Below, piece after piece: positions 33,161 through 34,410 of a stretch of DNA of 38,985 bases. The notes under the pieces are model-generated. The model saw only the letters and a list, made by a program, of their open reading frames with translations, made no database searches and had not been told where the DNA came from. Each line of letters starts with the position of its first letter. Position 1 is the stretch's first letter. Source of the stretch: a virus. The translations under genes were made by a program, and so were the position numbers. The DNA is taken from positions 90,218-129,202 of IMG/VR virus record IMGVR_UViG_3300014202_001569; one strand, written 5' to 3'.

Positions 33161-33457
33161 TTATTCCCCCTTCACCTCTGGTATTAACTGGAGTGAATCC
33201 GACTTGCGGCCCCACCCGCAATCAGCAATCTTCTTCAAATCGTCCAGGTTAAAGATACCCTTATCCAAGAGTAACTCAACCATACGCCCCATTGCTTCCA
33301 ATACCTTCCCAGGTTGATCTTCAAGACGAATCTTATCCTTACTTAGAGAATTATACCTCTCCTCATAAAGAAGTTCATCATAAAGAAAACGAGCAATACT
33401 CTGTGTTTCTATATCGACATTGCCCTTATAGCTTACAGATTCATATTGTATTTCCAC
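33161..33457 (-). CDS. hypothetical phage protein
   Basis: GAGGTG RBS with a GTG start. Confidence 0.6.
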   Translation of the reverse strand: MEIQYESVSYKGNVDIETQSIARFLYDELLYEERYNSLSKDKIRLEDQPGKVLEAMGRMVELLLDKGIFNLDDLKKIADCGWGRKSDSLQLIPEVKGE

Positions 33458-33477
33458 GATTCACCTCTTTGTATTAG

Positions 33478-33616
33478 TGGCGACGGAAGGATTTGAACCC
33501 CCGACCTACCGTTTAAGTAACGGTTGCTCTGACGACTTTTCCCCATTTGTACTTCATGGAGAAGGCCGTACAGGTACAATTTGCAACTTGTAGCCTGTCC
33601 TCTGAGCTACGCCGCC
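33478..33616 (-). tRNA. atypical tRNA-Lys(CUU)-like gene with a 66-nt D-loop insertion
   Basis: Acceptor GGCGGCG/CGTCGCC-A, D stem GCTC/GAGC, anticodon stem ACCGT/ACGGT with loop TACTTAA, T arm GGGGG-TTCAAAT-CCTTC. Confidence 0.8.
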
Positions 33617-33831
33617 GTTTTGCAAGCATCAATTAGATTCTGAACTTTGTTATGCCTTTCAGCTTCCTGATAGACACTGAAAGCTACACCAGAAGGATCG
33701 CCCTGCCAACAAATGCCACTTAACTCTAGGCCAGCCTTGTGTGCAACCACGCCGATGCGGTCAACCCATTGAGAGACTGGCCCTTCCCTAGTTGAATCAA
33801 TCACCAGCCTAACCACTTCGGCAATGTTCAT
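33607..33831 (-). CDS. hypothetical phage protein
   Basis: Its TAG stop lies within the 5' end of the tRNA-like gene. Confidence 0.55.
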   Translation of the reverse strand: MNIAEVVRLVIDSTREGPVSQWVDRIGVVAHKAGLELSGICWQGDPSGVAFSVYQEAERHNKVQNLIDACKTAA

Positions 33832-34255: not shown

Positions 34256-34410
34256 TAGCTAAGGAGGGACTTGAACCCACACGTTCATTTAAGAACAGGT
34301 TTCGCGTATGCCATTTCGCCACCTACCCATATAGTGGGCAGGGTGGGACTTGAACCCACACGCTCTTGTTCAGAGAGCAAACCCCGCGTATACCATTTCG
34401 CCACTTAGCT
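34256..34410 (-). ncRNA. twin (back-to-back) tRNA-Leu-like RNA lacking anticodons
   Basis: Two units, each with D arm, variable arm and T arm; cross-complementary acceptor strands; GGGTTT/AAACCT helix between units. Confidence 0.8.

Follow-up and report, generated by a model that had tools for sequence, protein, structure and literature searches.

The minus strand of the window (the whole 38,985-nt stretch of DNA analysed here) carries, from 33616 to 33478, a 139-nt sequence that reads as a tRNA cloverleaf, with four stems and the usual tertiary residues present and 66 nt inserted in its D-loop. The locus raises the question of what such an RNA is: a lysine tRNA, as the first-pass annotation had proposed from its CUU anticodon, a precursor from which the insert is spliced, a gene broken by chance, or a tRNA body put to another use. 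Our answer is that it is probably a tRNA mimic and not an ordinary lysine tRNA, and we tentatively favour a reading in which the insert is a retained expansion of the tRNA elbow.

The window comes from an IMG/VR record of 129 kb, of which it makes up the final 39 kb. One neighbouring protein occurs in identical form on contigs of up to 623 kb, and the best, distant, GenBank relative is the 595-kb uncultured phage LR756511.1; the source is a fragment of a huge phage of about 620 kb. As the neighbouring protein sits on contigs up to 623 kb, the ‘provirus’ label of the IMG/VR record is not credible. The tRNA-Tyr of this phage is of class II with a long variable arm, which indicates a bacterial host.

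Cloverleaf core and D-loop insert

The gene, its parts and the two ORFs that flank it are as follows (window coordinates).

33478..33616, minus strand: whole tRNA-derived gene, G1 at 33616 and discriminator A73 at 33478
33610..33616, minus strand: acceptor 5′ strand GGCGGCG, pairs with 33479-33485
33599..33609, minus strand: U8 A9, D stem 5′ strand GCUC (33607-33604) and A14 G15 A16 G18 G19 (33603-33599)
33570..33598, minus strand (33598-33570): insert hairpin 1, 29 nt; 10-bp stem, one bulge, 8-nt loop
33569..33569, minus strand: single A between the hairpins, invariant; paired with U20 (33532) by RNAalifold
33533..33568, minus strand (33568-33533): insert hairpin 2, 36 nt; about 13 bp, internal loop or bulge
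33525..33532, minus strand: U20 C20a A21 (33532-33530), D stem 3′ strand GAGC (33529-33526) and A26 (33525); invariant in six homologues
33508..33524, minus strand: anticodon arm ACCGU-UACUUAA-ACGGU, A33 at 33518, CUU at 33517-33515
33478..33507, minus strand: variable loop AGGUC, T arm GGGGG-UUCAAAU-CCUUC, acceptor CGUCGCC and discriminator A
33607..33831, minus strand: upstream 74-aa ORF, its last codons and TAG stop inside the tRNA (G2-G10)
33161..33457, minus strand: downstream 98-aa ORF, GTG start 20 nt past the tRNA, RBS AGAGGUG

Seven base pairs, one of them G-U, form the acceptor stem (GGCGGCG/CGUCGCC); the D stem (GCUC/GAGC) contains four, the anticodon stem (ACCGU/ACGGU) five, and the T stem (GGGGG/CCUUC) also five, two of which are G-U. 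In the core, the tertiary residues U8, A14, R15, G18, G19, A21, G53, U54, U55, C56, A58 and C61 are all kept; the 3′ flank is CUA, and CCA is not encoded. A folding energy of −52.3 kcal/mol is calculated for the intact 139-mer (z = −4.0 relative to shuffles), and in its minimum free energy structure the two insert hairpins form alongside the acceptor, the anticodon arm and the T arm. The covariance model built for this element (CM R1) gives it a self-score of 164.9 bits. Much of the first-pass description stands: the four cloverleaf stems that it called intact are upheld by direct reading and by pairing in six homologues, the 74-nt D-loop with an insert after G18G19 divides into 5 + 66 + 3 nt, the insert does consist of a 29-nt hairpin, one A and a 36-nt hairpin, with all coordinates holding, and the anticodon loop UACUUAA does lack U33, having A33 (33518) in its place.

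The 8-nt loop of hairpin 1, GUUGCAAA (33587-33580), is invariant among homologues and contains the palindrome UUGCAA; that of hairpin 2, GAAGUACAA (33555-33547), has an invariant GUACA core. Both hairpins are self-contained, and both junctions of the insert are hairpin bases joined to G19 and U20 with no linker, so that the elbow contacts between G18/G19 and the T-loop can still form in the presence of the module. We rejected an origin of the insert from a mobile element, as the 129-kb record holds no other copy of the 66 nt, except for a 9-mer (AATTGTACC) that also occurs in the phage promoters, and the insert has no terminal inverted repeats. A remnant of an attP or integration site was likewise rejected, the tRNA being complete and located among phage ORFs.

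Standard tools do not see this gene. ARAGORN called no tRNA in the window or, in any mode, in the intact 221-nt region around the element; after deletion of 33533-33598 it reported a 74-nt tRNA-Lys(ctt), so the gene is called only once the insert is removed, a check that the first-pass annotation had proposed. At gathering thresholds Rfam gave zero matches to the element, and under permissive settings its tRNA family (RF00005) scored 19.7 bits against a gathering score of 29, with a part of hairpin 2 misused as the 5′ half. Across 33380-33720 at E ≤ 10, Rfam returned this weak tRNA match and three chance-level matches, with no ribozyme family among them. A self-splicing or self-cleaving RNA was rejected on this lack of a catalytic-core match (Rfam, E ≤ 10); furthermore, a group I intron would not fit into 66 nt. 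As tRNA finders and Rfam overlook the gene entirely, phage annotation is blind to RNAs of this kind.

Homologues, covariation and the anticodon loop

Homologues were found through protein look-ups with three small neighbouring ORFs, which led to short metagenome contigs; the downstream 98-aa ORF served as the syntenic anchor. The element occurs in the same syntenic place on five contigs, listed here together with the window and the respective anticodon loops.

Window 33478..33616, minus strand: loop UACUUAA, A at position 33, anticodon CUU
L166:1069-1208: homologue, loop UGCUUAA, G at position 33, anticodon CUU
L004:674-812: homologue, loop UAGCUAA, A at position 33, anticodon GCU
L010:621-759: homologue, loop UUCAUAA, U at position 33, anticodon CAU
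L011:506-645: homologue, loop UUCAUAA, U at position 33, anticodon CAU
L164:891-1029: homologue, loop UUCAUAA, U at position 33, anticodon CAU

These six members (the window and five from independent metagenome assemblies) share one architecture at pairwise identities of 74-90%, the window being nearest to L166 and L010 to L164. A Logan contig of SRR12594517 is likely one further carrier. DNA pattern scans with the insert loops and the 3′ half in IMG/VR, JGI metagenome contigs and GTDB genomes gave chance matches to coding DNA or none, a related-locus search with two neighbouring proteins gave no further loci, and LR756511.1 has no element at the corresponding syntenic place beside its PcfJ-like gene.

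The stems of the six members covary. In a MAFFT alignment of four sequences, scored against a structure written by hand, the paired fraction of cells is 95.9% and both sides have changed in 14 pairs, a level reached by none of 500 shuffles, while slid controls gave 0-4 pairs. In the six-sequence alignment, which was fitted to the covariance model and leans towards it, 95.7% of pairs are standard and 16 of the 43 pairs are compensatory; again 0 of 500 shuffles scored as high, and controls with slid partners gave 0-3 pairs. The compensatory pairs of this alignment lie in hairpin 1 (6 of 10), hairpin 2 (6 of 12), the anticodon stem (3 of 5) and the acceptor (1), where pair 5:68 shows a G-C/A-U change. 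RNAalifold, which is independent of the prescribed structure, predicts both insert hairpins again, together with the acceptor and the anticodon and T arms, and counts 13 compensatory pairs. As several pairs are G-U, the folded strand is the tRNA strand.

The stems drift while GUUGCAAA, the GUACA core, the linking A and the core tertiary residues stay constant, and U8 A9, GCUC and the 5′ part of the D-loop, AGAGG, are invariant or R-conserved across the six homologues. Judged from such alignments, constant loops on covarying stems are the signature expected of functional loops. The tRNA core and the two-hairpin module are both under selection, and the locus is a real structured-RNA gene. The first-pass annotation had proposed a covariance search and had made its reading depend on conserved pairing of the insert in relatives; in the five homologues obtained through the protein look-ups, the pairing is conserved and covaries in both hairpins.

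This result bears directly on the notion of a tRNA pseudogene broken by a chance insertion. Such a relic would be overlooked by standard tRNA finders, as this gene is, and could be missing from several relatives, as is also the case: the flanking ORFs abut and the whole gene is absent in L003, L012-L018, L163 and L165, which are at a similar distance. However, six orthologues keep the insert together with covarying stems, conserved loops and an intact tRNA core, and the relatives that lack the insert lack the whole gene with it; a tRNA without the insert was seen in no relative. The gene thus behaves as a cassette, present or absent whole. Given the covariation in both insert hairpins and the conserved loops, we regard a pseudogene as excluded for practical purposes.

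The gene sits in a tight minus-strand row of small ORFs that belong to no known families. The 74-aa ORF upstream ends within it, its codons GCG GCG TAG being acceptor positions 2-7 followed by U8 A9 G10, so that the protein terminates in Ala-Ala. The same overlap of ORF and tRNA is found in L011 and L164, and the ORF is absent in L004, L010 and L166. RNase P cleavage at G1 would strip the last codons and the stop from the mRNA of this ORF and turn it into a non-stop mRNA.

The anticodon loop sets the family apart from decoding tRNAs, in which U33 is near-universal. Positions 32 and 36-38 are fixed, and positions 33-35 change repeatedly (UCA three times, ACU, GCU and AGC). The first-pass assignment to tRNA-Lys(CUU) does not extend to the family: CUU is found in two of the six members, CAU in three and GCU in one, a spread which, with its purine at position 33, looks unlike that of a stable decoder. 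Since the anticodon varies in this way, the lysine label fits one sub-lineage only. Neither is A33 the individual peculiarity for which it had been taken, because a purine (A33 or G33) recurs in all three of the non-CAU members. By sequence, the tRNA body resembles the Met/Ile2 type. Of the features that mark an elongator tRNA, U33 and a stable anticodon are not maintained across the six orthologues, and the D-loop has 74 nt in place of about 7-11 nt. The changing positions 33-35 and the purine at 33 mark the anticodon loop as a contested site, and its variability allows one to test directly whether phage tRNAs evolve so as to evade anticodon nucleases or to serve them as bait.

Fate and function of the insert

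The ribosome (through the L1 stalk, uL5 and H38) and RNase P make contact with the elbow of a tRNA, and T-boxes also read it. By analogy with these contacts, an elbow module of roughly 24 bp should hinder passage through the ribosome, and, given that ribosome and RNase P both read this surface, a retained module argues for a non-decoding role. That the module is retained is suggested by its self-contained hairpins, flush with the core, and by loops conserved in sequence; the sequence of an intron is usually free outside its splice motif. Neither a splice motif nor a ribozyme could be seen in the RNA, nor a splicing enzyme in the 129-kb record, and the anticodon loop is unlike that of a decoder, which again points to retention. 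Considering (i) the bulky elbow module, (ii) the purine at position 33 and (iii) the drifting anticodon, a tRNA mimic is suggested.

We propose the following model for such a mimic. The gene would be transcribed from the minus strand within the row of small genes, and the RNA would probably fold into a normal L-shaped tRNA core. Its ends would be matured in the manner of a tRNA, by RNase P at the 5′ end and by trimming and CCA addition at the 3′ end. The 66-nt module would be kept, its two helices abutting without a linker at position 20, the outer corner of the elbow, and the two constant loops would be the working surfaces, providing docking sites for a protein or another RNA. The RNA may then act as a bait, decoy or scaffold in a phage-host conflict over tRNAs.

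The enzymes encoded in the 129-kb record of the phage are relevant to this model (coordinates of G000).

67169-68278, minus strand: Rnl1-family RNA ligase, 369 aa
about 68989-69429, minus strand: P-loop AAA_33 kinase, 146 aa, adjoins the ligase
89473-89847, minus strand: PolyA_pol-family (CCA-adding-type) nucleotidyltransferase
43926-44396, plus strand: second PolyA_pol-family (CCA-adding-type) nucleotidyltransferase

The ligase and kinase adjoin tRNA-Glu and tRNA-Tyr (G000 69878-70047). The presence of an Rnl1-type ligase and a kinase beside tRNA genes, and of a twin tRNA-like RNA, points to a tRNA-centred conflict. Phage tRNAs have been proposed to change their anticodon loops and thereby to evade host anticodon nucleases (PMC10264068); the tRNA-repair genes and this proposal fit a conflict over tRNAs. 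Two facts speak against a mimic, however: half of the members have a canonical U33-CAU-A37 loop and body, as in a working Met/Ile2 decoder, and the ligase and kinase of the phage could reseal a cut tRNA, which would fit the removal of the insert as an intron.

The latter alternative holds that an endonuclease reads the two conserved loops and removes 66 nt from the D-loop, that the acceptor and D stems hold the halves together and that the kinase and the Rnl1-type ligase reseal them, the product being an ordinary 73-nt tRNA (Lys-CUU here, Met/Ile-CAU in relatives). Exact removal of 33533-33598 does result in a textbook tRNA, the core residues are all conserved, the CAU loops are canonical in half of the members, and the phage has the Rnl1-family ligase, the P-loop kinase and the two PolyA_pol-family nucleotidyltransferases. 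Decoding would, moreover, need the removal of an elbow module that should be incompatible with the ribosome. Against these points, neither the minimum free energy nor the consensus folds contain a bulge-helix-bulge (BHB) motif or an exon-intron helix, and RtcB, EndA and RNase III were not found in the 129-kb record of this phage of about 620 kb. The invariant loops and the rigid, linker-free junctions look like architecture and not like disposable sequence, and even a spliced product would be odd in its purine 33 and, on a class I body, in its GCU anticodon. We found no protein-spliced D-loop introns of bacteria or phages in the literature, and to our knowledge there is no bacterial or phage precedent for them.

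We consider a small new intron unlikely but still a serious contender, given that half of the members are good CAU tRNAs and that the ligase-kinase pair is present. The fuller claim, namely that this is the first protein-spliced (or otherwise non-group-I) tRNA intron of a bacterium or phage, situated in the D-loop, recognised by its loops and resealed by the phage kinase and Rnl1-type ligase, we hold more loosely still. If it were true, the repair pair of the phage would constitute a splicing pathway as well as a defence countermeasure.

It is also conceivable, if improbable, that the RNA is a working decoder which keeps its insert, being charged and used by the ribosome with the module as an identity or modification handle or a shield against host nucleases, and with an anticodon that has been remoulded in different phages to Met/Ile, to Lys or to a further specificity. 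The acceptor is canonical, as are the T and anticodon arms, compensatory changes preserve the anticodon stem, CAU and CUU are one substitution apart, and MetRS and LysRS both read the anticodon. The proposed changes in the anticodon loops of phage tRNAs that evade host anticodon nucleases (PMC10264068) would agree with such a history. On the other hand, 66 nt at the elbow should, by analogy, clash with the elbow contacts of the ribosome, three of the six members lack the near-universal U33, and GCU on a body with a short variable arm has no obvious synthetase.

A further explanation, at the level of DNA, arises from a resemblance between hairpin 1 and the promoter of the phage. This specific 16-nt promoter, AATTGCAATTGTACCA, occurs on the minus strand only, with 53 exact and 31 one-edit copies in the 129-kb record (84 sites, of which 18 are in the window, e.g. 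35699-35684 and 36754-36739, minus strand). The copy nearest upstream of the tRNA-derived gene is at about 35699-35684. Hairpin 1 contains AAGTTGCAAATTGTACC, the only 2-edit match on the promoter strand of the 129-kb record, and the two insert loops display both palindromes of this promoter, TTGCAA and GTAC. Hairpin 1 might thus derive from or imitate AATTGCAATTGTACCA, and the insert might be a remnant of a promoter cassette, a weak internal promoter or a bait, similar to 6S RNA, for a promoter-reading factor.

Shuffled genomes, however, yield about one 2-edit match each. The promoters of relatives keep TTGTACC and differ in their upstream halves (AAACTCCAG in L166, ..CA in L164 and AATTCGAG in L003), and the loop of hairpin 1 is nevertheless GUUGCAAA; the TACC part of the 3′ strand of hairpin 1 is not conserved, and the G-U pairs and the compensatory changes suggest that it is the fold of the RNA that is selected. 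As the loop does not track the promoters of relatives, we down-weighted promoter mimicry to a very improbable explanation, and the resemblance is an unexplained coincidence with a small chance of meaning.

Retention of the module on a tRNA mimic is the reading that we prefer among these. The first-pass annotation had likewise named a retained expansion, as a tRNA mimic or docking scaffold, and a small new intron, and these are the two most probable readings here. Whichever applies, a conserved two-helix elbow module would represent a new class of intron, a docking platform carried by a tRNA or a decoy set against immunity that targets tRNAs.

Relation to known tRNAs and tRNA-like RNAs

Compared with an elongator tRNA of the Met/Ile2(CAU) type as described by RF00005, the RNA is alike in its four stems, 7-nt anticodon loop, 5-nt variable loop, tertiary residues, discriminator A73 and lack of an encoded CCA, and it is reduced to a 73-nt tRNA by subtraction of the 66 nt. 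It is unlike such a tRNA in its 74-nt D-loop with two conserved hairpins, in scoring below the Rfam threshold, in having A or G at position 33 in half of the members and in not conserving the anticodon.

The nearest described object is species 1 RNA of phage T4.

NC_000866 70908-71046 (L162:1909-2047), minus strand: T4 rnaC (species 1 RNA), 139 nt

This stable RNA of the T4 tRNA cluster, the role of which is stated to be unknown (PMC3014915), has the same length of 139 nt and a long extra hairpin that replaces the D arm. By eye, it has a canonical T arm (CCGGG-UUCGAAU-CCCGG), a closing stem that resembles an acceptor and a hairpin that resembles an anticodon arm. In contrast to our gene, which has an intact D arm with the extra helices inside the D-loop, rnaC has no proper D stem or G18G19 context and carries U-U mismatches in its acceptor. 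When CM R1 was run on the T4 region, 6 of the 8 annotated tRNAs were matched and rnaC was not; the likeness is architectural only.

Non-canonical tRNA introns of archaea, for example of Aeropyrum pernix, depend on BHB motifs and include insertions at D-loop positions (PMC3241643). They are similar in being small inserts outside the anticodon, the exact removal of which restores a tRNA, and differ in that the host here is bacterial, a bulge-helix-bulge is not visible and the insert loops are conserved in sequence.

When CM R1 was run over the whole of LR756511.1, it found about 20 ordinary tRNAs and two expanded ones (among L158, L159 and L160).

LR756511.1 288625-288751: 127-nt tRNA
LR756511.1 291311-291437: 127-nt tRNA

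Both have a D-loop insert of roughly 55 nt in which an outer stem leads through a conserved internal loop (AACUU/CCUA) to an inner stem of 6 bp capped by a GAAA tetraloop; when the paralogues are compared, the stems covary. One of the pair has the anticodon loop CUCAUAA (CAU, U33) and the other CAGUAAA (GUA, A33), and the second 127-nt tRNA is flanked by good −35 and −10 boxes of the sigma-70 type. Unlike the two-hairpin module, this insert is one long hairpin, with no similarity to the module evident by inspection, and the tRNA bodies are alike only as any two tRNAs are. Finders of the ARAGORN type would miss these genes as well. A pattern scan of IMG/VR for an insert of this type found none. 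On the sequences, elbow insert and purine 33 appear to have come together, or to have stayed together, in two separate lineages of huge-phage tRNAs. Huge phages may keep a toolbox of tRNA mimics; the phage studied here also holds a twin tRNA body.

In the literature that we searched for inserted or intron-bearing D-loops of phage tRNAs, and in a review on non-canonical tRNAs, we found no such structured insert described for a bacterial or phage tRNA, and the two-hairpin elbow design is absent from the literature and RNA families searched. What is new is the two-hairpin insert in the D-loop; the molecule itself is of a known kind, a tRNA or tRNA-like RNA.

Other structured RNAs were noted in the course of this work. 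LR756511.1 encodes at 220338-220430 a 93-nt tRNA(CAU) with a 19-nt hairpin inside its anticodon loop. In L166, about 140 nt between the expanded tRNA and a 95-aa ORF (L166:1209-1347) are non-coding, GC-rich and apparently structured, and may be another small RNA. A 136-nt RNA with an acceptor and T arm lies near the ligase and kinase genes (G000 72929-73064).

The twin tRNA-like RNA, which has no anticodon, is located at 34256-34410 on the minus strand of the window, with a terminator-like hairpin just upstream (34434-34418). Its acceptors are crossed: the 5′ AGCUAAG of body A pairs with the 3′ CUUAGCU of body B and the 5′ GGGUAGG of B with the 3′ CCUGCCC of A, and GGUUU in A pairs with AAACC in B. 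This RNA is best read as two class II-like tRNA bodies placed head to head and sharing one loopless anticodon stem. It also occurs at L010:1-137 and L164:1-69, and in L010 the side hairpins are exchanged while the crossed acceptor pairing is retained.
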